Assembly: GCA_964558375.1 (NCBI GenBank)
Contig: CAZLCD010000001.1
Location: 209,160 to 273,159 of the forward strand
DNA length: 64,000 bases
From: an uncultured Candidatus Saccharibacteria bacterium
Lineage (GTDB): Bacteria > Patescibacteriota > Minisyncoccia > Phycocordibacterales > PALSA-1337
Direction: 5' to 3'
Shown here: positions 8,451 to 56,898 of the stretch, in pieces
How the letters are laid out: each line of letters starts with the position of its first letter
Position numbering within the stretch: the first letter of the stretch is position 1
Notes under the pieces: model-generated
What the model saw: only the letters and a program-made list of their open reading frames with translations
Told to the model about the DNA's origin: nothing
Database searches by the model: none
Program-made: the position numbers and the translations under genes

Positions 8451-11400
8451 ATGATAAACCATCAAGTCAAAAGTTCATATGCCATAGCAATAATCTCCAT
8501 TTTATTTTTCTGTGCATTATTTGTAGTCAATTTTGCAAGGAAAGAGATAGCTAAAATAAACTTTGTAGCTTATATACCGGAAGCTCGAACACTTCTAGCA
8601 CAAGCAGGGGGAAGTCTGAGTGATGGACTAGTGGGGCATTGGACTTTTGATGAGGGAAGTGGAACTACAGCGGGGGATTCTAGTGGGGCGGGGAATAATG
8701 GAACTCTGGTGAATTTCCCTTCAGATGGTTCTGGATGGGTTGATGGGTATTTTGGAAAGGCGCTAAAATTTAATGGAACAAACACTTATGTAAATCTACC
8801 AAAAATTTTGGCCAATAAAACCCAATTTACAATATCAATGAGGGCAAGGTTTGATGGTGCGACAGATTTTCAGGGAGCACTTATGGGTCACTCAAATGGT
8901 GGATTCTACATTCGAAAAGCTGGTTCATGTAATAGTATCATCACTTGGGTAGTAAATAGCTTGAGTACAAATGTTGGAGCCTCTCTCAATGGATCTCCTT
9001 CAAGTGGTATTGCCTGTGATAGTTGGCAAATGCATACATTTACCATGCAAACAAATGGAACTTTTTCATATTATATAGATGGAGAATTTATAAAATCTGC
9101 AACCCATCCATCATGGGATTCTTTCAATGCTTCACATGACAATAGGATTGGTCAATATGCCGGGTCTGGTTATGTATGGAATGGTCTCATAGATGATACT
9201 AGAATATATGATCGTGCTCTATCTGCTGTAGAAATTTCCGAACTTTATAATCAAGGTACACCAAATGAAGTAGTAGAAGTGTCTACAGCGGATAGAGAAG
9301 CACCAAGTATACCAGCGAATCTAGTTGCTACTTCTGTGTCAGCAACACAAAACAATCTTTCATGGGATGCCTCTACAGATAATGTCGGTGTGACTGGATA
9401 CAAGGTATATAGAGGAACAACCGATATCGGTAATACCACAAACCCTACTTTTCAAGATACAAATGTTCCCTCAGACAACTCTAGCGTCTATACTACTTCT
9501 ATATACACCGTACTTGCATATGATGCTCAGAATAATAGATCGAACAAATCCGCATCAGCTTCCGCTACTTTTCAGTCAGCCAATACAGAGAATCCAGCTA
9601 ATGTTGCTCAAAATTTAAATGGACTAACTCTAGGAACTAATCTGAGGATAGATAATCTTGGAGCGCCCTTGAAAGGTAATACTCAAGAGCATCAAGTAAT
9701 GTATAAAACAAATGATGGTCATAGACATTTACAAATGTACTATGATACTTTTGGTGCATCACCTATCGATGTTGTAGATATTGATCTCGAAAACGCTAAA
9801 GTTGTAAAATCTTCTCTCGAAAGAAATGTAGGGAGAGTCGGTACTCGTTGTCATGTGTTCTATCCAGCAAATAACAAAATGTATATAGGTAGTAGTGATC
9901 CAGGAAGCTTTAGTGAATTTGATCCTACTACCGGAGCGACCAAGTATATAAGTGCAGTAAAGTACAAAGGTGCCTATCATTGTGAAATAGGTGATGATGG
10001 ATGGATATATATAGGGCAAATAACTGCAGGTGTAGTTAAGGGGGCAGGTCTCGAAAGATACAATCCTACGACTGGTGTATGGCAAGATCTAGGAGTCATC
10101 GACCCTGCTTTTAATGGTGCTTTGCAATATGCTTACACATTAGGTGCTGACAATCGATATGTATATATTAGTCTCGGTCAACTTCCATGGTATCTAGCTG
10201 TATATGATACTCAAGCTACTTCAAATAAGATCAAGATTTACTTTAAAGAGAATGGAGATACTAATAGTAATATTTCAAAGGGTGCAGATGGCAAATGGTA
10301 TTATACAAAATATCATTTAGGAGAGACTCCGTATAAAAGAATGTATAAATTTGAAAATGGCATTCCAGTAGAAGTAAGTAGTACGCCAGTTTTGGATCAA
10401 TGGTATCAGCAGAGCAATGTGATATCTGACAAGTCAGCATTTAAGCAAGTTTTTAATACTGAAGTAAATTTTGATAAGGCAAATTCAAATTCAGAGAACG
10501 GGGGCACGGTAGAGATAAGTTGGAAGACAGATTCTGGATCTTGGCAATCTGCTACAGTGAATGGTCTCAGTCAGGTAGCAAGAACTATCAAGCGCCTGTA
10601 TCCATGGCCAGGCAGAGAAGATAAATTTCTGGGATGGGCTTCTGAATATGGATTAGTGTTTTTGTATGATGCTTCATCAAAAGATATTCAGTCATTAGGG
10701 TATCCAACAAGAAGTCTTTATGACGCTGTTTTTGTTGGTCCGATTATCTATATATCCGGATACACAGCCATTACTATGAAGTATGATCCAAGCAAACCTT
10801 GGACACTTTCAGCTTCGACCCTAGATCCGAAGTCGACTTCTGTTAATCCATACATCTTTTATGGTCAATATGGTAAGTATCATTACTATTCAACTCTAGG
10901 TTCAGATGGAATGCTATATATTGCCACCCACCATGAGCGAGGTTCAGTGGGAGGAGAGATTGCTTGGTACAACCTGAGTTCTGGCGCATCGGCTAGTCTT
11001 CGAGAACCTTTTCTGGACTATGATGTAAGTGATCTAAAAAGCGCTCTCAATGGTACCAAGATTGTCTACTCCAGTAGTAAAGATAAATTATTTATTTTCG
11101 ATGTTGCCACAAAAAGAATTGAAAGGGAAATCACTCCTATACCTGGCAATATGGAAATTGATAAAATTTTTGAAACTGAACCCGGGATTATCTTCGGTAT
11201 ATATGACACAAAATACTTCAAAGCAAATATTCAAACAGGAGAAATTATATACATAAAAGATCTTGGTGGCAGAGCTTTCCCTGGGATTCCTGCTTATGAT
11301 CGCAGACTTGTAAAAGGTCCTGACGGGTATGCTTGGCTATTTATCGATGATAAATTATCAAGAATCAATCCAGTGGACGGTACAATTCAAAAAATAATGA

Positions 11401-32182: not shown

Positions 32183-32458
32183 ATGAAAAAAGACATTCAC
32201 CCAAAGGAATACAGACCAGTAGTCTTCGTTGATAATTCCAACGGAACTAAGTTTCTTATTTCTTCAACTATCAAAACTTCAGAAAAAGAAACATGGACAG
32301 ATGGTAAAGAATATCCTGCATACCACGTGGAAATTTCTAGTTCATCTCATCCTTTCTATACAAATCAAGAGAAATCTCTAGACAGTGCAGGTCGTGTAGA
32401 AAAGTTCAAAACTCGCCAGTCAAAGGCTACAAGCAAGACTTCTGTAAAGAAGGCTTAA
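32183..32458 (+). CDS. rpmE: 50S ribosomal protein L31 (start at 'MKKDIHPKEY'; the track ORF begins earlier at 32135)
   Basis: 'MKKDIHPKEYRPVVF.D...G..F...ST......TW.DGKEYP...VEISS.SHPFYT' matches L31. Confidence 0.85.
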   Translation: MKKDIHPKEYRPVVFVDNSNGTKFLISSTIKTSEKETWTDGKEYPAYHVEISSSSHPFYTNQEKSLDSAGRVEKFKTRQSKATSKTSVKKA

Positions 32459-32580
32459 CTTAAAAAGGTAAGATACTGTCCTTCCGCAGACCAGAAGTTT
32501 TTTGCTAAAAACTTCTTAATCCTCGGCGACTACTCGCCTGCGGAGTCTGCTTCAGAACAATATCTTACCTTTTTAAGTTA
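32459..32580 (+). ncRNA. candidate structured RNA or cis element: a 14-bp outer inverted repeat enclosing nested hairpins between rpmE and prfA
   Basis: 'AAAAAGGTAAGATA...TATCTTACCTTTTT' is a perfect 14-bp inverted repeat. Inside it 'TCCGCAG...CTGCGGA' and 'AGAAGTTTTT-tgct-AAAAACTTCT' are also inverted repeats. Confidence 0.3.
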
Positions 32581-42576: not shown

Positions 42577-42727
42577 GGTTTTTATCGATAGTCATAACTT
42601 TAGCATTTTAAATAGAATGTGTGGAGGGGTTGACTTATAGTTTTTACGTGGTAGTCTCAAGGAGAATTTCTGTAAGTGAAGTAATTCATAAACCGTTCTT
42701 AAACAACTAAAAACATGGGGGTGAATT

Positions 42728-43285
42728 GTGCGTACCGTAATTGCAATTATTGCAGCAGAGTTGAGTCGTTCAAATACTGGTAAAGTAATTCTTGGTCCAG
42801 AGACCATTGCTGTCTGTAATAATGCTCTTGATTATCCAGCAGATCTTTTGGTGAAAGCTTTTATGGGTAATGTCGAAGATCATGTAATACTTGGCGATTA
42901 TTATTATGCCGTGATGGCATGCAAACCGCCAAACCAAACTGATGGTCAGCCGATGTGTGAGCTAATGAAGAAATACCTTATGTCTAAGGGGGTTGAAGAA
43001 GGGTGGATCTTAACCAATGTCGCTACACATTTCCACACCAATGGAGAGCTTGGTGCACTAGCTTCGCTAGTCGAAGAGAGAAAATTCGACAGAGTAATTA
43101 TTGTTGCACGTTGGTGGCATATGCCAAGAGTTAAGTTTTTGTGGTTATTTCATCAAATTCATTTCACTCGTAAAGTGGAGGAGGTCTTTGTAAACGCTCC
43201 ATCTAAATATTGGGTGAAGATTTTCACAGACCCAACTCTCGGCATTATTCATAATATCTTCAGGTGGTTAGTTAAAGGACACTGA
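42728..43285 (+). CDS. DUF218 (YdcF/SanA/ElyC-like) domain protein, GTG start
   Basis: 'RVIIVARWWHMPRV' resembles the conserved 'HMPRA' motif of DUF218. Moderate confidence. Confidence 0.5.
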   Translation: MRTVIAIIAAELSRSNTGKVILGPETIAVCNNALDYPADLLVKAFMGNVEDHVILGDYYYAVMACKPPNQTDGQPMCELMKKYLMSKGVEEGWILTNVATHFHTNGELGALASLVEERKFDRVIIVARWWHMPRVKFLWLFHQIHFTRKVEEVFVNAPSKYWVKIFTDPTLGIIHNIFRWLVKGH

Positions 43286-43470
43286 AGACAATTCGTCAAG
43301 CTCTGCGTGCATCAGCAATGGTGTCGCGGGGCTTTTTATTTACTTTTTTAAATTTTATTTTGTAATAAATTTATATTGAACTTTTCTTACCATTAGACCG
43401 TTGCAATATATAGCTATTTAAAGTTATTAAGATTTGATAAAGATTTTGTGGGTTTATTATGGTTTTTCTA

Positions 43471-43500
43471 TTGCTTAAGTTTATGTAAATAATTTATAAT
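43471..43500 (+). promoter_or_regulatory. sigma70-like promoter TTGCTT-N18-TATAAT upstream of 43531..44076
   Basis: 'TTGCTTaagtttatgtaaataattTATAAT' lies 30 nt before the ATG. Confidence 0.45.
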
Positions 43501-43530
43501 GACTTCACTTAAGTAAATTATCAGACACTA

Positions 43531-44076
43531 ATGAAAAATAACATTATGAATGAAACAGAACCATTGTATATAAAGAAATTACGAGAACATATAGACTATA
43601 AGATAGAGACTCAGGAACCTAAGTATTTTAAGGAGTTTAGAGAGAGCTTAGAAACACATGAGCCAAAGTACTTCAAAGAGTTTAGAGAAAGCTTAGAAAC
43701 ACATGAGCCAAAGTACTTCAAAGAGTTTAGAGAGCACATAGACCATAAGATAGAAACTCATGAACCTAAGTATTTTAAGGAGTTCAAGAAAGAGATAAAG
43801 GATCATATAGATAACAAGATCGATGAAGTTTTAGTATCTACTGCGGGAGAATTTAGAAGAATTGATGAAAAATTTGATAAAATTGATACCGAGTTTGAGG
43901 GAGTTAATAACAGACTAGATAGACTAGAATCTGACGTGGTGGAAGTTAAAGAAAGTATAGGTAAAATAGAAGGTCATATAGGTAGATATGAAGTCAGGGC
44001 TCAAAATATAGAAGCAATTTTATTGGAAGATCATAAACCAAGAATAATCCAGTTGGAAAAAGAAGTTTTTGCCTAA
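43531..44076 (+). CDS. hypothetical coiled-coil protein with four tandem 15-aa repeats ('HEPKYFKEFRESLET')
   Basis: A 45-nt perfect tandem DNA repeat at about 43634-43723, with a heptad-like C-terminus. Confidence 0.6.
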   Translation: MKNNIMNETEPLYIKKLREHIDYKIETQEPKYFKEFRESLETHEPKYFKEFRESLETHEPKYFKEFREHIDHKIETHEPKYFKEFKKEIKDHIDNKIDEVLVSTAGEFRRIDEKFDKIDTEFEGVNNRLDRLESDVVEVKESIGKIEGHIGRYEVRAQNIEAILLEDHKPRIIQLEKEVFA

Positions 44077-44101
44077 ATATCTTTTTGCTTTTTTCAAACT
44101 C

Positions 44102-47100
44102 TTAACCCAACACCCTAACCCTCTCCACTATCATGCTTTTCTGACCGTTTCTTTCGGAGATTTTGCCTTTTAGGGCAAGGCATTTATCAGGGGTGAATGC
44201 ACTTCGGAATTCTACCAAAACCTTTGGGAAAACTACGGTTTCCAATTCGCCAGAAAAATCGGCGACTTTCACGAAAGCCATAGCGTCACCTTTCTTCGTG
44301 GTGATGGGTTTGATCTCTTCGATTATGCATGCCAAAGTCACTTCATCCCCATCTTTCAAAGTTTCCTTGGCTTTCTTTATGTCCATATCTCTCTTTGCAA
44401 TTATTTCTTTATAGCGATCAAGTGGATGTCCAGAAATATAAAGACCCAACAATTCTTTTTCCCAGGCCAACTTTTCTTTGGGATCTATGTTTGGAGCTTC
44501 AAGAAGTTTCAGTTTAGGAATACTTGAGGTATCAGACATCAAACCAAAAAGTGAATCCTGATTATCACTCTGCTTTTCTTTTTCTTTATTATATGCAAGC
44601 AATATTTCGATATTACCCATAAGTATTCCGCGATCAATACCAAAACTATCTAGTGCACCAGATTTGACTAAGGCTTCCAGAGACTTTTTGTTTAAATTTT
44701 TGTCTTTTACTCGGTCTAGAAAGTCCGTGAGGGATTTGAAATGCCCATTTTTCTTCCTTTCGTCTATTATGGCTGTTGCTATACCTTGGCCAAAATTCTT
44801 TATTGTCACTAGTCCAAAGCGTATTGTGTCCTTCTTTCTATCTTCATTATTTTTTACTACAGTGAATTGACTGTAACTTTCATTAATATCTGGTGGAAGT
44901 ATCGGTATACCCATTCTTTTACACTCTGCTATTGTTTCTGCAATTTTTTCTACATCCCCAGAGTCTGCGCTGAGAACGGCCGACATATATGTAGCAGGAA
45001 AATTGGCTTTCATGTATGAAGTCTGATAGGCAACTTTTCCATAGCTAGCTGCATGAGCTTTGTTGAAACCGTATGCAGCAAAAGGCTCGATGAGCTTCCA
45101 GAGAGTATTGGCATTCTTTTTGCCCATACCGTTTTTGACGAAGCCGGCAAGTAATTTCTCCTTCTGTTCTTCCATTTCTTTTGGAATCTTTTTACCCATT
45201 GCCTTTCGAAGCTTGTCTGCTTCAAGCCAAGAATATCCGGCGAGCTTGATAGCGATCATCATCACATCGTCTTGATAGGTGATCACTCCATAAGACATAT
45301 CCAGAATATCTTTCATGCGAGGGTCTAGATATGCCACTTTTGATTCATCATGTTTTCTTTCGATGTATTGAGGGATAGATTCAAGCGGTCCTGGACGATA
45401 AAGGGCGACCATAGCATTGATATCGTGAATTCTGGATGGCTTAAGATCTATAAGAAACTTGGTCATACCTGTACCATTGAGTTGGAAAAGTCCGGTCGTT
45501 TCTCCGCGTGCAAGCATTTCAAAAGTTTTTGTATCATCAAGCGGAATATTTTCTATATCAACATCGATATCATCTATTTTTTTTACCCTTTCCACTGCAT
45601 CTGCAAGTATTGAAAGGTTTTTTATTCCCAAGAAGTCAAATTTTAAAAGTCCTACACCATCTTCTCCGACGGCGTGCATATCGTATTGGGTAATGATTTT
45701 TCTCTCACCCTTTGTATCGTATTGAAGTGGGGTATGTTCTATAAGTGGATCTGGTGAGATGACCACTCCTGCTGCATGTACAGAAATGTGTCGTGCACAA
45801 CCCTCGATCTTTTTGGCCATATCAATTATCCGTTTTGCAGACTCTTCTTTTTCATAAATTTCTTTGAGCTCGGCTGTTTCATTTAAGGCTCGGTCGATCG
45901 TCATCGGGAATCCTTGCGCACCAAGTGGTATGAGCTTGGAGATGCGGTCTGCAACTTCGTAAGGGAAACCCATAGCGCGGGCGATATCGCGCACAGCACC
46001 CTTGGCCATCATAGTTCCGAAGGTTCCTATCTGTGCTACTTTGTCATGACCGTACTTTTTTCTGGTGTACTCGATCACTTCGTCTCGACGATTATCGGCA
46101 AAGTCCATATCGATATCGGGCGCCGATGGTCTTTCTGGATTTAGAAATCTTTCGAAGGGAAGCTTATAGGCCAAAGGGTCTACATTTGTAATCTTGGTGA
46201 GATAGGTGGTCAGAGAACCAGCGACGGATCCTCGAATATTTGTAAGTATTCCATGCTCATGTGCATAGCGGAGCAGATCCCAAACCACGAGGAAATATTG
46301 CGCATAACCTTTATCTTTAATAACTTTCAATTCATATTCAAGGCGATCTTTAACTTCTTTTGTTTCTGTTAAGCCACGAATCGCTATCCCTTCATAAGCC
46401 AATCTTTTTAATTCATCATCATGTGAAAGCCCACTTTCTACTATGAAGTTCGGGAAATACCATTTGCCGAGGCCAAGGTCTATGTCGCACATCCCGGCAA
46501 TTTTTATTGTATTGTCCAAAGCTTCCGGAATATCTGCAAAAAGTTCTTCGGCCTTTTCGGATGTGATAAAAGAAAAATCCTCGTCTTCATTGAAACTTTT
46601 GTCGGACATGTCTCCTCCAGTATTTACGAGCATCAAGGTGTCGCGAGCAGTCCTGTCCTCTGAATGGATATAGTAGACATCATGGCCAGCTACTATATCT
46701 GTGTCGGTTTCTTTGGCTAGCTTTATAAGTTGTTGCATCAAGTCTTCATGTCCTTGGATTTCTGCATGACGAGTGATTTCTATAAAAAAGTTTTCGGGGC
46801 CGTAGACTTTTTTGTAAAAAGAAATCAATTCTTTGGCCTTGTCGATATTCTTTGCTTTAATGGCTTGCGAAATATCACTAGAAAAAGAAGGGGCAATGCA
46901 AATAAGATTTTCTTTGTATTTTTCTATAAGCTCACGGTCGAGGCGGGGTTTATAATAGAAACCTTCAAGATAAGAATAGCTGACGAGCTTCATCAAGTTT
47001 TTGTAACCCTCATAGTTGCGTGCGAGTAAAACGAGGCGTGTACGGCGATTGTCTATACCAGCCTGCATGTCTGTGCGATTCCTGACGGCGACATAGAAGT

Positions 47101-47299
47101 CCACCCCGAGTATCGGTTTTATTCCTTTTTTCTTACATGTTTTATAAAACTCTATAGCCCCATACATATTGCCAGCATCGGTTAGCGCTAGGGCAGGCAT
47201 GTTGCTTTTCTTGGCTTCATCTATAAGGTCTTCGATCTTCGGTAAAGCATTCAAAAGAGAATAATGACTATGGGTGTGGAGATGTATAAATCGAGACAT
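44102..47299 (-). CDS. dnaE: DNA polymerase III alpha subunit
   Basis: PHP N-terminus 'FIHLHTHSHYSLLNAL', 'GLLKFDFLGIKNLS' and 'AHAASYGKVAYQTSYMKANFPATYMSAVLS' are present. Confidence 0.95.
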   Translation of the reverse strand: MSRFIHLHTHSHYSLLNALPKIEDLIDEAKKSNMPALALTDAGNMYGAIEFYKTCKKKGIKPILGVDFYVAVRNRTDMQAGIDNRRTRLVLLARNYEGYKNLMKLVSYSYLEGFYYKPRLDRELIEKYKENLICIAPSFSSDISQAIKAKNIDKAKELISFYKKVYGPENFFIEITRHAEIQGHEDLMQQLIKLAKETDTDIVAGHDVYYIHSEDRTARDTLMLVNTGGDMSDKSFNEDEDFSFITSEKAEELFADIPEALDNTIKIAGMCDIDLGLGKWYFPNFIVESGLSHDDELKRLAYEGIAIRGLTETKEVKDRLEYELKVIKDKGYAQYFLVVWDLLRYAHEHGILTNIRGSVAGSLTTYLTKITNVDPLAYKLPFERFLNPERPSAPDIDMDFADNRRDEVIEYTRKKYGHDKVAQIGTFGTMMAKGAVRDIARAMGFPYEVADRISKLIPLGAQGFPMTIDRALNETAELKEIYEKEESAKRIIDMAKKIEGCARHISVHAAGVVISPDPLIEHTPLQYDTKGERKIITQYDMHAVGEDGVGLLKFDFLGIKNLSILADAVERVKKIDDIDVDIENIPLDDTKTFEMLARGETTGLFQLNGTGMTKFLIDLKPSRIHDINAMVALYRPGPLESIPQYIERKHDESKVAYLDPRMKDILDMSYGVITYQDDVMMIAIKLAGYSWLEADKLRKAMGKKIPKEMEEQKEKLLAGFVKNGMGKKNANTLWKLIEPFAAYGFNKAHAASYGKVAYQTSYMKANFPATYMSAVLSADSGDVEKIAETIAECKRMGIPILPPDINESYSQFTVVKNNEDRKKDTIRFGLVTIKNFGQGIATAIIDERKKNGHFKSLTDFLDRVKDKNLNKKSLEALVKSGALDSFGIDRGILMGNIEILLAYNKEKEKQSDNQDSLFGLMSDTSSIPKLKLLEAPNIDPKEKLAWEKELLGLYISGHPLDRYKEIIAKRDMDIKKAKETLKDGDEVTLACIIEEIKPITTKKGDAMAFVKVADFSGELETVVFPKVLVEFRSAFTPDKCLALKGKISERNGQKSMIVERVRVLG

Positions 47300-47407
47300 G
47301 GGGGTATTATAGCAAATTTAAAAAGTTATCCCCAAGTTCTTAAGATTTGATAAAGATTTTATGAATTTAGTTGTTGCATTTATATGGTGGATTGAGATAA
47401 TTCACCT

Positions 47408-48232
47408 ATGGAACACAATAAGATTATTATATTTAAAGGTAAAAACGTTCGCAGGACACTCCATAATGATGAATGGTGGTTATCGGTGGTGGATGTTATA
47501 GAAGTTTTAACCGATAGTGTTAAGCCAAGAGACTATTGGTATAGGTTAAAAGATCGTGTAATCGATGAAGATAAAATCGAGTTGTCGACACTTTGTCGAC
47601 AACTGAAATTAGAGTCCACTGATGGTAAATTTTATGAAACTGACTGTGCCAACACTGAAGGCATTTTTCGTATCATTCAATCTATCCCTTCTCCCAAAGC
47701 AGAACCATTTAAAAGATGGCTAGCCAAGGTGGGCTATGAAAGAATGCAGGAAATAGAAAATCCCGAACTAGCCACAAAACGCACTAGAATGTTATATAAG
47801 TTGAAAGGTTATAGCGATGATTGGATAGAAAAAAGAATGAGAGGTATAGCTATTCGCGAAGAACTTACAGATGAATGGAAAGATAGAGGAGCGCAAGAAC
47901 ATAAAGATTATGAAATATTAACTGCAGAAATTTCAAAAGCTACATTTGGAATTACTCCAAAACAATACAAAGAATTAAAGGGATTAAAAAGAGAAAATCT
48001 TCGAGATCATATGAATGATTTTGAACTTATTCTCACTATGCTTGGTGAACGTTCAACCACAGAGATTCATAGAACTGAAGATTCTAAAGGTGTTAAAAAA
48101 TTAAAAGAAGATACAATGATTGGCGGAGAAATAGCTGGTGGCGCACGTAGACAACTTGAAAAGAAATTAAAAAAATCAATAGTTTCAGAAAAGAATTTTA
48201 AAGACCTAAATGCCAAAAGACTCAAAACTTAA
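47408..48232 (+). CDS. DNA-damage-inducible protein D (DinD)-like / Bro-N domain protein
   Basis: 'IIIFKGKNVRRTLHNDEWWLSVVDVIEVL' is a Bro-N-like N-terminus. The C-terminal half ('LYKLKGYSDDWIEKRMRGIAIREELTDEWKDRGAQ...') resembles E. coli DinD. Confidence 0.65.
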   Translation: MEHNKIIIFKGKNVRRTLHNDEWWLSVVDVIEVLTDSVKPRDYWYRLKDRVIDEDKIELSTLCRQLKLESTDGKFYETDCANTEGIFRIIQSIPSPKAEPFKRWLAKVGYERMQEIENPELATKRTRMLYKLKGYSDDWIEKRMRGIAIREELTDEWKDRGAQEHKDYEILTAEISKATFGITPKQYKELKGLKRENLRDHMNDFELILTMLGERSTTEIHRTEDSKGVKKLKEDTMIGGEIAGGARRQLEKKLKKSIVSEKNFKDLNAKRLKT

Positions 48233-53013: not shown

Positions 53014-56000
53014 ATGAATAATTTGATAAAAACGTCTCATGCATTTATCATCATAATTTCTCTTTTTCTTGCAAGCTTAAATATTATATTTTGGTCTTCG
53101 GAACAATTGAGTATTGTTGCTAAAAATATTCCCATAGAATCCATAAAACAAACCGCGGCGGTGGGGGATTTTGATTCTAGTAAAATTCATCATGAGACTT
53201 TCGATAGTGGAGGATCGACTGGTATAGTAGGGCAAGCTAAGGTATTTGCTTCACTTACAGATAAAGTAAACACTCCAATAAATACCTCTACTCTTACCGG
53301 TGGCTTCACTATTTCTTTTTGGGCGAATCCTACAGCTCTAGCTTTTAATAAGTTTGCATATTCTGCAAGTGATCAGGGCGCAGACCGATTTTATTTTAGA
53401 CAAGATACAGGAACTAGTGCTGTAGCTGGACTCGGTAGTTGGAATCCCGCTATCAGTTCTGCTTTTTCTACAGATAAGTGGACTCACTATGTCATTACTT
53501 TAGATGGCACTACAGGTAAGATTTACAAAAATAATTCAGTCGTAGCTTCCAATTCAAATATTACCGTCGCTCTACCAAACTCTGTTATTGCTATAGGTGC
53601 AAGTAAAGATTCCACAGCAAATACTTTTTTCACAGGTTCTTTAGATGATTTCCGTATCTACAATCGAGCTCTTACTGTAACTGAAATAGATGATCTATAT
53701 ATACTTGGTGGAGGTGCAGTTGCAGAAGTAGATACCACCCCTCCCTCTGTACCTGCAAATGTTACAGCTACAGCAATTTCTTCATCTCGGATAGATCTTT
53801 CATGGTCTGCATCTACCGGTGGAGCCACAGGGTATCGTGTCTATAAAGATGGAAGTCAGATAACTACAACTGCTAATACCTCATATTCCAATACAGGACT
53901 TACTCCAGCTACTTCGTATTCATATACAGTCGCTTCATATGATGACGATTCAAATGTATCAGCTCAAAGCTCTTCTGTTTCTGCAAGCACACCTGCTGGG
54001 TCTGGTTCACCGATAGATGGACAATGTTCAACAACTTTAAATACATGCACAACCCCAACCCCCGCAACAAACATAAGAGCAGACGCTAATAATAATCTTT
54101 GGACTTGTCCTGGAACAAATAATGGCAATCCAGCATCTTGTTCATCACCTATTACAACTGGTGGCAGACAGCCTACAGTTTCTGGTAACGAGGTAACTGC
54201 ATATTCTTGCGAACAGGTAGATGTGCAGGCGGCTTTGAATATCGCTCAGACAGGGAATATTGTAAATATTCCAGCTGGAACATGTACTTGGACAAGTACT
54301 TTTAATTTCAATAAAGCAGTTACTCTAAAGGGGGCAGGGGTAGATCAAACAACGCTTATAAATGGTGTATCACACACTGGAATTTCTAGTTGTGGTGGAT
54401 GTACAAGACCACAGATTATTATCATGAGTTCAAGTAATTCTGGGTTAACTAGAATTACAAATATGACTATCGATGGTGGTTCGGGAACTATAGATGGACA
54501 AAATAATGGTTTTTTTCTAGTCTACGGAAGTTCTAAAAATTGGAGAATAGATCATATGCGTTTTCGCGTGACTCGTACTTCTGCTATAACCGCGTATGCT
54601 CCGGGCGGTCTCATAGACAATAATCGTTTTGATATTATTGGCTGGTATGTGAGTATCTATGGTAAAAATGGAGGAGGAGAAAATGGTGATCCTGTATGGG
54701 CTCAGGATACTGAACTCGGTACAGATAATGCCTTATATATAGAAGATAATACATTCTATTCTTCCACGCCAAGTCTCGGTCTTGATGGATGGATGGGACA
54801 ACGTGTAGTTGTAAGGTTTAATAATTTTAATAATTCCCGAGCAGGTAATCATGGAACAGAGAGCGGTAATCGTCTACGAGGTTCTAGGAGTTACGAAATA
54901 TATAATAATACTTTCAACAAAACTAATGGTGATAATTATAGCGATGCTGTAGGTATTCGTGGTGGTGTAGGGGTCGTATTTAATAATACCTTGTCAGGAT
55001 CTTTTACAATGGTTGGTTCTATGCACAACTATCGTGATCTACACCCATATTCACCTTGGGGTCAATGTGATGGAACGAGTCCTTTCGATTTAAATGATCT
55101 AGAAGATGATAATTCTACCCTAAGAGTTTATGATACAGGGACTTCTGATACAAATTCAGTATATTCTAATAATAATATTACACTTACAGATTCAGATAAA
55201 TCATGGACTGCTGGTCAATGGATTGGTTATAGTATTTGGAATACAACAAAAAATCTAAAAAGTCCCATAACATCCAATACAGCCACAACGATAACTAGTC
55301 CCACAGATAACAACAATAATAGCGCGCCATTATCTTGGAGTAATGGTGATAGTTTCAAAATAATACGCGCATCTATGTGTATTGATCAAGTCGGTAGAGG
55401 TAAGGGAGTTTTGATTTCTGGTGGACAAAGTAATCCAACCCCAAGAGCTTGGACACAACAAGAATTAGATCCAACATATATCTGGAATAATACTTTAAAT
55501 GGATCTTATCGTGCTATAGGTGATACATCGGTTCATATTGTAGAAGGTAGAGATTATTATAATAACACTTGTAAGCCCGGGTATAGTCCATACACGTATC
55601 CCCACCCCCTTACAGGACTCTCACCTCAAACTGTACCCTTGAATTGTAATGGTGGTACACCAGCGCAAACCTATAATCTCTCTGTTTCAAAACAGGGAAC
55701 TGGTTCAGGTACTGTGTCTGGAGGTTCTATTTCTTGCGGAAGTATTTGTTCAATGACAGGTTCCGGAAATATCTTACTCCTAGCTACTCCAAGCAACGGC
55801 TCAGCATTTACTGGTTGGTCAGGCGCTTGTACTGGTTCTAGTAGTATTTGTTCAGTATCTCTTTCTTCTAACCAAACTGTTACTGCAACCTTTGGTCCAG
55901 GAACTCTAGTCGGCACCCCCGCTCAATGTTCCACCACTCTAAACTCCTGTTCAACTGGTACCTTAAGATCTGGTAGTCAAAGTAGCAATTCTACCCACAA

Positions 56001-56898
56001 CCTCTGGACCTGTGATGGTCTAAATGGAGGAGCTCAAGCTTCTTGTTCTGTTCTTAAAACACTTCCTCCTACACCTGGTCAATGTTCTACTACCCTAAAC
56101 CTTTGTACTTCTGGAAATCCAGAAGGTATAACTGCCAACACTACTCATAATATATGGACTTGTGGTGGTACAAACGGTGGTGAAGCTATCTCTTGCTCAA
56201 AACTCATATCCAACATAGACCTAACTCCAACCACCAACTTGGTTACGGTAAACAAAACAGGATCAGGATCAGGTACGGTTACGGGTACAGGTATCTCTTG
56301 TGGATCTGACTGTACTCATGTATTACCTATAAACACCGCTATTACCCTCACAGCTACTCCAAACAGTGGTTATGTGTTCAGTAGTTGGTCTGGAGGATAT
56401 TGTTCTGGTAGTAATAATACTTGTACTATTACTCCTACTACAGACGCTACTGTTATAGCAAGGTTTAGTATTATTCCTACCGCAATAAATGGTCTATGTT
56501 CCACTACTCTAAACTCTTGTACTACTGGTAGATTTTCTGAAAGATCAGATAACACGACTCACTCTCTCTGGTCATGCCAAGGTACAAATGGAGGAACTAA
56601 TGTAGATTGTTCTAGTGTAAAACCTGCGGTACCACCTCCTGTTTATAATCCTCCAGTTCAACCTGTAAACTATACTCCTACTCCTTATGTCTATAAGAAA
56701 CCAGTAACTACTCCAAAGTTAATTCAACCAACCCCAGATCTCCCACCCTCCCCATCCTTCGAACCTCTAGACTTCATACCCACCGACTATATAAAGATAT
56801 TGCTCAATCTTACCAAAGATTTGGTTCTTAATTTTGTACAGAGAATTACAAGAGGTGCTCAGAAAGTGATAGAGGAGATAAAAATGCTAAGTAGCTAA
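53014..56898 (+). CDS. giant secreted multi-domain protein of the LamG family: signal, LamG, FN3, Cys module, beta-helix-like core, InlB-B-repeat, Cys module x2, InlB-B-repeat, Cys module, diverged family C-terminal tail
   Basis: LamG ends 'LDDFRIYNRALTVTEIDDLYILG'. FN3 is 'PPSVPANVTATAISSSRIDLSWSAS..ATGYRVYKDG'. There are four 'CSTTLN.C...(8-12)..TH.[LI]W[TS]C.G.NGG....C[S]' modules and two 'GSG.V.G..ISCGS.C...........L.ATP..G..F..WSG.C.........VTA.F' modules. The tail is '...YVYKKP...PDLPPSPSFEPLDFIPTDYIKILLNL...'. Confidence 0.85.
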   Translation: MNNLIKTSHAFIIIISLFLASLNIIFWSSEQLSIVAKNIPIESIKQTAAVGDFDSSKIHHETFDSGGSTGIVGQAKVFASLTDKVNTPINTSTLTGGFTISFWANPTALAFNKFAYSASDQGADRFYFRQDTGTSAVAGLGSWNPAISSAFSTDKWTHYVITLDGTTGKIYKNNSVVASNSNITVALPNSVIAIGASKDSTANTFFTGSLDDFRIYNRALTVTEIDDLYILGGGAVAEVDTTPPSVPANVTATAISSSRIDLSWSASTGGATGYRVYKDGSQITTTANTSYSNTGLTPATSYSYTVASYDDDSNVSAQSSSVSASTPAGSGSPIDGQCSTTLNTCTTPTPATNIRADANNNLWTCPGTNNGNPASCSSPITTGGRQPTVSGNEVTAYSCEQVDVQAALNIAQTGNIVNIPAGTCTWTSTFNFNKAVTLKGAGVDQTTLINGVSHTGISSCGGCTRPQIIIMSSSNSGLTRITNMTIDGGSGTIDGQNNGFFLVYGSSKNWRIDHMRFRVTRTSAITAYAPGGLIDNNRFDIIGWYVSIYGKNGGGENGDPVWAQDTELGTDNALYIEDNTFYSSTPSLGLDGWMGQRVVVRFNNFNNSRAGNHGTESGNRLRGSRSYEIYNNTFNKTNGDNYSDAVGIRGGVGVVFNNTLSGSFTMVGSMHNYRDLHPYSPWGQCDGTSPFDLNDLEDDNSTLRVYDTGTSDTNSVYSNNNITLTDSDKSWTAGQWIGYSIWNTTKNLKSPITSNTATTITSPTDNNNNSAPLSWSNGDSFKIIRASMCIDQVGRGKGVLISGGQSNPTPRAWTQQELDPTYIWNNTLNGSYRAIGDTSVHIVEGRDYYNNTCKPGYSPYTYPHPLTGLSPQTVPLNCNGGTPAQTYNLSVSKQGTGSGTVSGGSISCGSICSMTGSGNILLLATPSNGSAFTGWSGACTGSSSICSVSLSSNQTVTATFGPGTLVGTPAQCSTTLNSCSTGTLRSGSQSSNSTHNLWTCDGLNGGAQASCSVLKTLPPTPGQCSTTLNLCTSGNPEGITANTTHNIWTCGGTNGGEAISCSKLISNIDLTPTTNLVTVNKTGSGSGTVTGTGISCGSDCTHVLPINTAITLTATPNSGYVFSSWSGGYCSGSNNTCTITPTTDATVIARFSIIPTAINGLCSTTLNSCTTGRFSERSDNTTHSLWSCQGTNGGTNVDCSSVKPAVPPPVYNPPVQPVNYTPTPYVYKKPVTTPKLIQPTPDLPPSPSFEPLDFIPTDYIKILLNLTKDLVLNFVQRITRGAQKVIEEIKMLSS

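Follow-up and report, generated by a model that had tools for sequence, protein, structure and literature searches.

The 64,000-nt stretch analysed here in full (the window; contig CAZLCD010000001.1 of an uncultured Candidatus Saccharibacteria bacterium) carries a 21-nt sequence, TTAAGATTTGATAAAGATTTT, in two exact copies on the plus strand (43427-43447 and 47340-47360), which form the core of the element that is the subject of this report. The window contains housekeeping genes, a NusB-NUDIX fusion and very large LamG/fn3 surface proteins, and looks like part of a small Patescibacteria-type genome. Copy 1 lies between a DUF218 gene (42728-43285) and orf181, a gene for a 181-aa helical repeat protein, and copy 2 falls within the 108 nt that separate the divergent dnaE and Bro-N/DinD-like (Bro-N below) genes, the latter being followed by rnhB, rpmF, nusB, rnc and smc. 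Both copies are intergenic, have the same orientation and stand upstream of predicted sigma-70-like promoters. We favour, with moderate confidence, the reading that the element is a protein-binding site in duplex DNA, made of two head-to-tail 11-bp units, which is phased upstream of the promoters of the orf181 family and shared with the dnaE/Bro-N region. The features of the locus are listed below, with comparison loci given by their labels (L201 and so on).

43420..43450, plus strand: element copy 1 (AAAGTTATTAAGATTTGATAAAGATTTTGTG), core at 43427-43447; 31/31 nt identical in L213, and the same core at the start of L201-L205
43471..43500, plus strand: predicted sigma-70-type promoter of orf181, with -35 TTGCTT (43471-43476), an 18-nt spacer and -10 TATAAT (43495-43500); predicted transcription start near 43507
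43546-44076, plus strand: orf181, all-helical coiled-coil repeat protein; start probably the ATG at 43546, not 43531
44102-47299, minus strand: dnaE (DNA polymerase III alpha), flanked by the two element copies
47306..47311, minus strand: predicted -10 box of dnaE, TGCTATAAT (extended -10), ending 6 nt before the dnaE ATG (47299)
47326..47334, plus strand: DnaA-box-like 9-mer TTATCCCCA (one mismatch to TTATCCACA), just left of copy 2
47334..47363, plus strand: element copy 2 (AAGTTCTTAAGATTTGATAAAGATTTTATG), core at 47340-47360; identical in the same-strain Logan contigs L116 and L117, with diverged orthologs in L121 and L211
47374..47401, plus strand: predicted promoter of Bro-N, with -35 TTGCAT (47374-47379), a 16-nt spacer and -10 GATAAT (47396-47401)
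47408-48232, plus strand: Bro-N/DinD-like gene, product of 274 aa, inserted between dnaE and rnhB as an accessory gene

The exact 21-nt duplication is far beyond chance and supports the binding-site reading. No further match to the core was found in the window at up to three mismatches (0.01 expected), and two copies occurred in 0 of 100 shuffled sequences. A sequence-only reading of the window had reported the perfect core in two copies of the same orientation, which is exact, and identity at 27 of 29 positions, which is essentially right: with their flanks, 43421-43450 (AAGTTATTAAG...TTTTGTG) and 47334-47363 (AAGTTCTTAAG...TTTTATG) agree at 28/30 positions. The internal repeat AGATTT-N5-AGATTT that it described is also present, but as a loose pattern this repeat occurs at chance level in the window (22 found and 20.7 expected at two mismatches), and single 11-bp units are not enriched there. 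Thus, the signal is the long exact block. Copy 1 comprises two tandem 11-bp units, TTAAGATTTGA (43427-43437) followed by TAAAGATTTTG (43438-48); the repeats read as direct rather than inverted, and the element has no dyad symmetry. Furthermore, the element forms no hairpin or other single-strand fold (fold energy about 0) and has no Rfam match, which is in keeping with a site in duplex DNA and led to the rejection of an RNA element. Two embedded promoters were also rejected: one inside the element (TTGATA, 18 nt, TATGGT), given that its -10 is not conserved in copy 2, L215 or L217, and a sigma-54 promoter in copy 1 (TGG-N8-TTGC, 43460-43476), given that L213 reads TGT at its GG and copy 2 lacks the pattern. 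Beyond about 31 nt the similarity of the two copies is not significant (left flank p=0.06, right flank p=0.64), and the idea that copy 1 duplicates the whole dnaE promoter region was dropped for this reason.

The constant partner of the element is the orf181 family, which has 73 cluster representatives at E<=1e-10. Its members are proteins of 100-200 aa with conserved ends (MNETEPLY... and ...IEGHIGRYEVRAQNIEAILLEDHKPRI..LEKEVFA) and a variable number of coiled-coil repeats, including internal repeats of the EPKYFKEFRE type. Homologs start at MNETEP, which corresponds to the second ATG of the window gene, and the first ATG (43531) is not conserved in L201 or L213. The predicted structure model of orf181 is one long helix with short helical repeats, and since this amounts to a single long coiled coil, the possibility of an obvious DNA-binding autoregulator was dropped. 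Five orf181 homologs could be placed on contigs, and the element lies upstream in 5/5, in the same orientation and amid different neighbouring genes, as follows.

L213, bipA upstream, orf181 homolog of 53% identity: AAAGTTATTAAGATTTGATAAAGATTTTGTG, 31/31 nt as in copy 1, the remaining upstream region being 86% identical
L201-L205, liv-type ABC operon, orf181 homolog of 68% identity: same core
L217/L218, bipA ... SLFN/truB/hisS, orf181 homolog of 37% identity: GAGATAAAGATTTGATAAAGATTTTGT, with 21 identical nt, a perfect 11-bp tandem repeat
L215/L216, rmuC ... rplU, orf181 homolog of 50% identity: TAAAATTTTGATAAAGTTTTTGTGG, preceded by TTATCCCCG, 21/25 match
L212, SLFN/truB/hisS, orf181 homolog of 61% identity: GATAAAATCTGGATAAAATTTTTGT, with GATAAAAT twice at an 11-bp period

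The contrast in L213 between the element (31/31 nt) and the rest of the upstream region, and the retention of the core across these differing contexts, both support the binding-site reading. In L217/L218, where the element is a perfect doublet of GATAAAGATTT, no other part of the upstream DNA visibly aligns with the window. A more distant homolog in L122 (36% identity) has no clear copy. The element-bearing orf181 loci in other genomes do not have dnaE nearby, and the element most likely belongs to the promoter of this Patescibacteria-type coiled-coil gene family rather than to dnaE or a DNA-damage regulon. A position weight matrix (PWM) built from eight instances matches only those instances in 1.04 Mb of related loci, and the element is therefore rare and specific. 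This result, together with the count of two copies in 64 kb, also speaks against the short dispersed repeat that the sequence-only reading had kept as an alternative.

Alignment of the eight instances gives the invariant columns T.AA twice, exactly 11 nt apart, followed by T.TT.T. This corresponds to a skeleton TWAA-N7-TWAA inside two head-to-tail 11-bp units, of which the best form is GATAAAGATTT. The gap to the promoter was taken from the last T of the core to the best downstream TTGNNN/TANNNT promoter, the promoters being predictions with unmapped starts. It is 23 nt in copy 1, L201, L213 and L212, 13 nt in copy 2, L211, L215 and one option in L121, and, less surely, 33 nt in L217; the orientation is the same throughout. 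Elements upstream of predicted -35 boxes had been recognised correctly by the sequence-only reading, but at a distance of 20-40 nt, which holds for copy 1 (23 nt) and not for copy 2 (13 nt). The predicted -35 boxes downstream of the element are of the TTGCNT type, and the -35, spacer and -10 of orf181 are conserved in L201, L213 and L212. Gap steps of 10 nt (13/23/33) would keep the element on one helix face relative to RNA polymerase.

Copy 2 also faces the dnaE promoter. No obvious -35 box was found for dnaE, but a TANNNT ending 5-8 nt before the dnaE ATG occurs in 57/76 relatives (27 with an upstream TG), against 6.5% of control ATGs. As this -10 layout recurs in relatives, dnaE is probably leaderless in the window and apparently throughout this clade, which would place the core of copy 2 at about -41 to -61. 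Bro-N shares the predicted layout, with its -10 close to the ATG; its mRNA would be leaderless or nearly so, given that the ATG (47408) is 6 nt after the predicted -10.

The position relative to dnaE is the classic zone of an UP element, which the sequence-only reading had held in reserve and which stays a live rival, especially for dnaE. The element would then be UP-element-like or intrinsically bent A/T-tract DNA that boosts promoters through the C-terminal domains of the RNA polymerase alpha subunit or through curvature, with no dedicated regulator. The core read on the dnaE strand (AAAATCTTTATC...) is close to the distal UP half-site, T-tracts recur every ~10-11 nt, and helical phasing is also expected for UP elements or bends. 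However, at the orf181-type promoters the core lies at about -60 to -90, beyond the usual UP position, and ends 23-33 nt before the -35. The conserved G positions and the 21-nt identity at 37% protein identity exceed the specificity that an A/T tract needs, and the element is missing from the orthologous regions upstream of dnaE in L122 and in most of the 80 loci described below. A UP or curvature effect is therefore plausible for dnaE and less so for the sites at -60 to -90, and as an account of the element as a whole it is unlikely.

The surroundings of copy 2 were compared across 80 metagenome loci anchored on DnaE (58-82% identity), most of which keep the order smc-rnc-nusB-rpmF-rnhB <> dnaE-thrS...gyrB. 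Bro-N and DUF218 occur in 0/80 of these loci, and an orf181 homolog occurs only in L122, at the same position as in the window. The core is absent from 79/80 at up to four mismatches, and a relaxed-pattern search returned one diverged ortholog, AGTTATTAAAAAGGGATAAAATTTTTGTGG, in the closest relative, L121; 78/80 loci are without the element by either measure (up to four mismatches to the core or two to the relaxed pattern). The alignment of window and L121 DNA starts at the dnaE stop codon, takes in the element and breaks off after 47378, to resume at rnhB; in place of Bro-N, L121 has a PemK-like toxin gene. Bro-N does stand between dnaE and rnhB in some other relatives, which were found through its protein. 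In L211, whose Bro-N is 84% identical, the position of the element is taken by AGTTATTAAATCTTTATTAAATTATTGTAA, reading TTAA-N7-TTAA, and the promoter layout is that of the window gene (13-nt gap, TTGCTT/16 nt/GATAAT). L207/L208 (Bro-N 81% identical) have a different 8-nt direct repeat of the same 11-bp period, TATGAAATCCCTATGAAAT. Thus, the dnaE/Bro-N site keeps its architecture and not its sequence, and that the two window copies are exactly alike could be due to selection for the optimum of one regulator, homogenisation, or both.

A repeat pair comparable to that around dnaE was found in no relative, and the notion of a general phenomenon of this kind was dropped. The same observation lends some colour to a functionless remnant of recent local duplication or gene conversion between promoter regions 3.9 kb apart, as do the presence of only two copies in the window, close together, and the loss of significant similarity beyond ~31 nt. 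Such a remnant is highly improbable as an explanation, given that the 21-nt run persists in unrelated contexts before orf181 homologs with as little as 37% protein identity and that unit architecture and spacing are conserved.

That reading had proposed a shared operator of a DNA-damage or replication-related regulon, from the adjacency to dnaE and the DinD link of Bro-N. A promoter-upstream site in one orientation, conserved in other genomes, is what was found, but its assignment to such a regulon is not supported. The constant partner is orf181, which stands beside a liv-type ABC operon, bipA, rmuC/rplU or truB/hisS in contexts without dnaE or Bro-N, and Bro-N is an accessory insertion in whose other carriers, L211 and L207/L208, the element is diverged or different. 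A LexA-type operator covering dnaE and Bro-N, with copy 2 between them, is largely refuted: the element has neither a LexA-type palindrome nor any resemblance to a LexA box, and no regulator gene was found in the window. In the version linked to replication, DnaA would act at the site, and here the 9-mer beside copy 2 deserves mention. TTATCCCCA lies at about -27 to -35 of the predicted dnaE promoter; at the same place L121 and L211 have TTATCCACA without a mismatch and L207/L208 have CTATCCACA, and TTATCCCCG adjoins the element upstream of the L215 homolog of orf181. The 13-nt-gap instances carry TTATCC(A/C)C(A/G) 9-12 nt to the left. A Bro-N homolog in L011 adjoins dnaG-rpoD, with the 18-mer core 283 nt upstream. 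Against this, the adjacent 9-mer is confined to the 13-nt-gap instances, being absent from the 23-nt-gap copy 1, L213 and L212 and from L217, and DnaA-box-like 9-mers across the window are at chance (14 found, 19 expected). Bro-N is missing from all the DnaE-anchored loci and the element from nearly all. Taken as a whole, a DNA-damage or DnaA operator is very unlikely. An origin of replication (oriC) was also rejected, given that the window has no GC-skew turn or strand switch and DnaA boxes only at chance frequency.

Bro-N itself carries a perfect 25-nt palindrome with an 11-bp stem, AGTTGTCGACACTTTGTCGACAACT, inside its coding sequence (47580-47604). The palindrome is kept in five homologs (including L211 at about 389-413, L207, L011 and L214), with compensatory changes at 6/11 pairs; 98% of cells are paired, with no G-U, and it therefore looks like a DNA-level inverted repeat or hairpin kept at amino-acid cost. 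A remnant lies upstream of rnhB in L121 (457..432), where Bro-N has been replaced. The protein is exceptionally well conserved and widely distributed: in a protein search with the Bro-N/DinD-like sequence, all 8000 scored candidates had E<=1e-20 (at least 8000 homologs), and the best 120 were 75-84% identical; named sources among these 120 are Patescibacteria, Ignavibacteriales, Deltaproteobacteria, Nitrospirota, Omnitrophica and Chlorobiaceae. In the loci examined, Bro-N homologs adjoin replication genes, namely dnaE (window, L207/L211) and dnaG-rpoD (L011). Such a distribution suggests that the gene moves horizontally and is strongly constrained.

The junctions on either side of dnaE differ from locus to locus in their length and gene content, which marks them as hot spots for accessory genes. 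In the window, the dnaE-thrS and rnhB-dnaE junctions (42577-44101 and 47300-48232) hold DUF218, orf181 and Bro-N; L121 has the PemK-like toxin, and other relatives have gaps of 0-4 kb amid conserved synteny. This location is one of several observations that fit a recombination or junction sequence, that is, a short repeat where gene modules are exchanged or homogenised, through site-specific or short-homology recombination or gene conversion, with the promoter position secondary. Blocks of homology start or end at the element: that between the window and L213 begins at 43417, and that between the window and L121 runs from dnaE to 47378 before giving way to a different gene (PemK-like toxin in place of Bro-N). 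Furthermore, the 9.1-kb Logan contig L201 has the element at both of its ends in direct orientation (1-31 and 8999-9113), with an orf181 homolog and a complete liv-type ABC operon between them. Its start reads A, the core and GTGAG..., and at its end a counterpart of the copy 1 left flank, matching window 43333-43420 at 91% identity, runs into AAAAGTTC and the core. The contig is not a simple circle because its two ends differ at the A/C position, and the left flank of copy 1 (43333-43420) is joined to the A-variant in the window and to the C-variant in L201. Five independent Logan assemblies (L201-L205) start at exactly the same base. Logan contigs are, to our understanding, k=31 assemblies, and on that assumption the shared breaks would point to copies with at least ~30 nt in common or, in that population, to alternative junctions.

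However, the element has no hairpin and no inverted-arm core as in tyrosine or serine recombinase sites, and neither the window nor the comparison loci hold a recombinase gene. The window copies flank the essential dnaE in direct orientation, such that recombination between them would delete it. The fixed phasing to predicted promoters in six genomes would go unexplained, and the window strain and contigs L213, L116, L216 and L218 pass through the element unbroken. Recombination as the primary role is unlikely. A more speculative reading, which we consider quite improbable, makes the element either a module junction that places accessory genes beside replication genes in these streamlined genomes or, with the TTATCCACA box, an 11-bp-phased array that oligomerises DnaA. 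The module junction is drawn from the homology breakpoints at the edges of the element and from the 9.1-kb contig bounded by it at both ends; if true, Bro-N, the PemK-like toxin, orf181 and the 9-kb ABC-transporter block would be set beside essential replication genes by copies that recombine or homogenise. If a DnaA array, the element would tie the expression of orf181, Bro-N and dnaE to replication status.

Returning to the protein-binding site, the core would be the conserved part of the orf181-family promoter module that lies furthest upstream. A regulator bound as a head-to-tail dimer would occupy both window sites, one ahead of orf181 and the other ahead of the Bro-N promoter, where it also covers about -41 to -61 of the dnaE promoter, probably a leaderless one, and would touch RNA polymerase. 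As a result, orf181 and Bro-N would be co-regulated, and dnaE perhaps as well. Candidates for this regulator are a protein akin to the winged-helix OmpR/PhoB/CtrA response regulators and a bending protein of the IHF/HU type. The repeat, its units, conservation and orientation and its spacing to predicted promoters are observed directly, whereas binding, the protein concerned and the sign of its regulation are inferred.

Several points weigh against this interpretation. No regulator gene was found in the 64-kb window, and the promoters and transcription starts are predictions. The L217 promoter at gap 18 outscores the one at gap 33, and because several instances are orthologous, two or three independent indel events are all that underlies the 13/23/33 series. 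In L211 and L121 the core of the copy 2 ortholog has diverged, and L207/L208 have another repeat there, from which constraint at the dnaE/Bro-N site appears weaker than at orf181; the identity of the two window copies may be partly homogenisation rather than selection. In addition, a 29-nt stretch of the 5' untranslated region is equally invariant between the window and L213.

Wider searches added little. A scan of genome contigs with the 18-mer core, which can encode RFDKDF, gave more than 115 matches in diverse phyla, nearly all chance and many apparently inside coding sequence. Among the matches listed, the sole possibly relevant case, homologous or chance, is L011 (Candidatus Taylorbacteria metagenome-assembled genome, JANNAN010000007.1), where the 18-mer lies inverted at 1605-1622, 283 nt upstream of a Bro-N homolog of 78% identity. 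A strong hairpin lies between the two, and a 25-nt palindrome, AGTTGTAAAGAATTTCTTTACAACT, in the gene leader. A metagenome scan with a 26-nt pattern gave no match, and phage and plasmid collections held no real match. Viral contigs gave three chance-like matches to the 21-mer (two sharing their flank with the bacterial locus L050), one locus in a Bro-N protein search (55% identity) and none in a search with the orf181 profile.

Elsewhere in the window, the longest inverted repeat (36 nt, 86% complementary, arms at 32456-32491 and 32545-32580 with 53 nt between them) spans the end of the L31 gene and the stretch just beyond it, before the RF-1 gene, and may be a terminator or leader structure. 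The regions 1-22800 and 53014-56898 are occupied by a run of very large genes, the largest encoding 2614 aa, with 126-nt internal repeat units and LamG/fn3 domains. They share blocks at 77-96% identity and are paralogous surface-protein genes typical of such genomes.

Bacteria of the candidate phyla (Patescibacteria) have few transcription factors and are hard to culture. To our knowledge, no transcriptional regulatory sites have been characterised in them, and a literature search for published work on such sites found nothing relevant. The element is placed in no named regulon and is probably a previously undescribed cis-regulatory motif from a poorly studied lineage: a long, sharply conserved, apparently phase-locked site tied to a lineage-specific gene family and duplicated before a second gene. 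Its adjacency to dnaE and a dinD-like gene is tempting but wrong ground for an SOS or replication operator. The 31-mer, the half-site model and the spacing variants provide a concrete handle for finding the regulator and its regulon in Patescibacteria.

On the favoured reading, the element would work in the manner of the direct-repeat sites of OmpR/PhoB/CtrA-type regulators and of phase-dependent class I activator sites. LexA/SOS boxes are palindromes (CTGT-N8-ACAG; GAAC-N4-GTTC), and a nearby DinD-like gene is all that the element has in common with them. It resembles them neither in symmetry nor in sequence, tracks neither dinD-like genes nor dnaE across genomes, and does not recur upstream of SOS genes in the loci compared; it follows orf181, and the Bro-N homologs of L207/L208 are without it. 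Repetitive extragenic palindromic (REP) sequences and miniature inverted-repeat transposable elements (MITE) differ from a non-palindromic sequence present twice in 64 kb and always upstream of promoters in one orientation. Cores of the att/dif/lox type differ by their inverted recombinase-binding arms, and no recombinase is encoded in the window. The UP element of rrnB P1 is likewise A/T-rich, and the element resembles its distal half-site on the dnaE strand, at -41 to -61. However, at the orf181 promoters the element is too far upstream, and its conserved Gs and long exact conservation are atypical. The IHF site WATCAANNNNTTR is matched with one mismatch on the reverse strand of the window (TATCAAATCTTAA), with a 5' A/T tract, and exactly in L217 and L215, but L212, L121 and L211 misfit, such matches are common in A/T-rich DNA, and IHF sites are usually not tandem. 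The CRP sites of class I activators are centred at -61.5, -71.5 and -82.5, and the centre of the element shifts in similar steps of ~10 bp, near -60, -70 and -80; CRP sites are palindromic, whereas the element is a direct repeat without dyad symmetry.

The sites of OmpR, PhoB and CtrA are built of direct-repeat half-sites (Pho box, OmpR F sites, CtrA box TTAA-N7-TTAA). Conservation of the element over 21-31 nt is longer than in a typical half-site pair, and no cognate regulator gene was found in the window. CtrA itself is alphaproteobacterial, and Pho boxes replace the -35, whereas the element ends 13-33 nt upstream of it. Nevertheless, the eight instances repeat a half-site head to tail at a distance of 11 bp, about one helical turn, as these sites do, and the skeleton TWAA-N7-TWAA resembles the CtrA box, whose TTAA-N7-TTAA L211 reproduces exactly. 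Sites of this class also lie upstream of or beside the -35 in a manner that depends on the helix face, to which the gaps of 13, 23 and, less surely, 33 nt to predicted, unmapped promoters would correspond.

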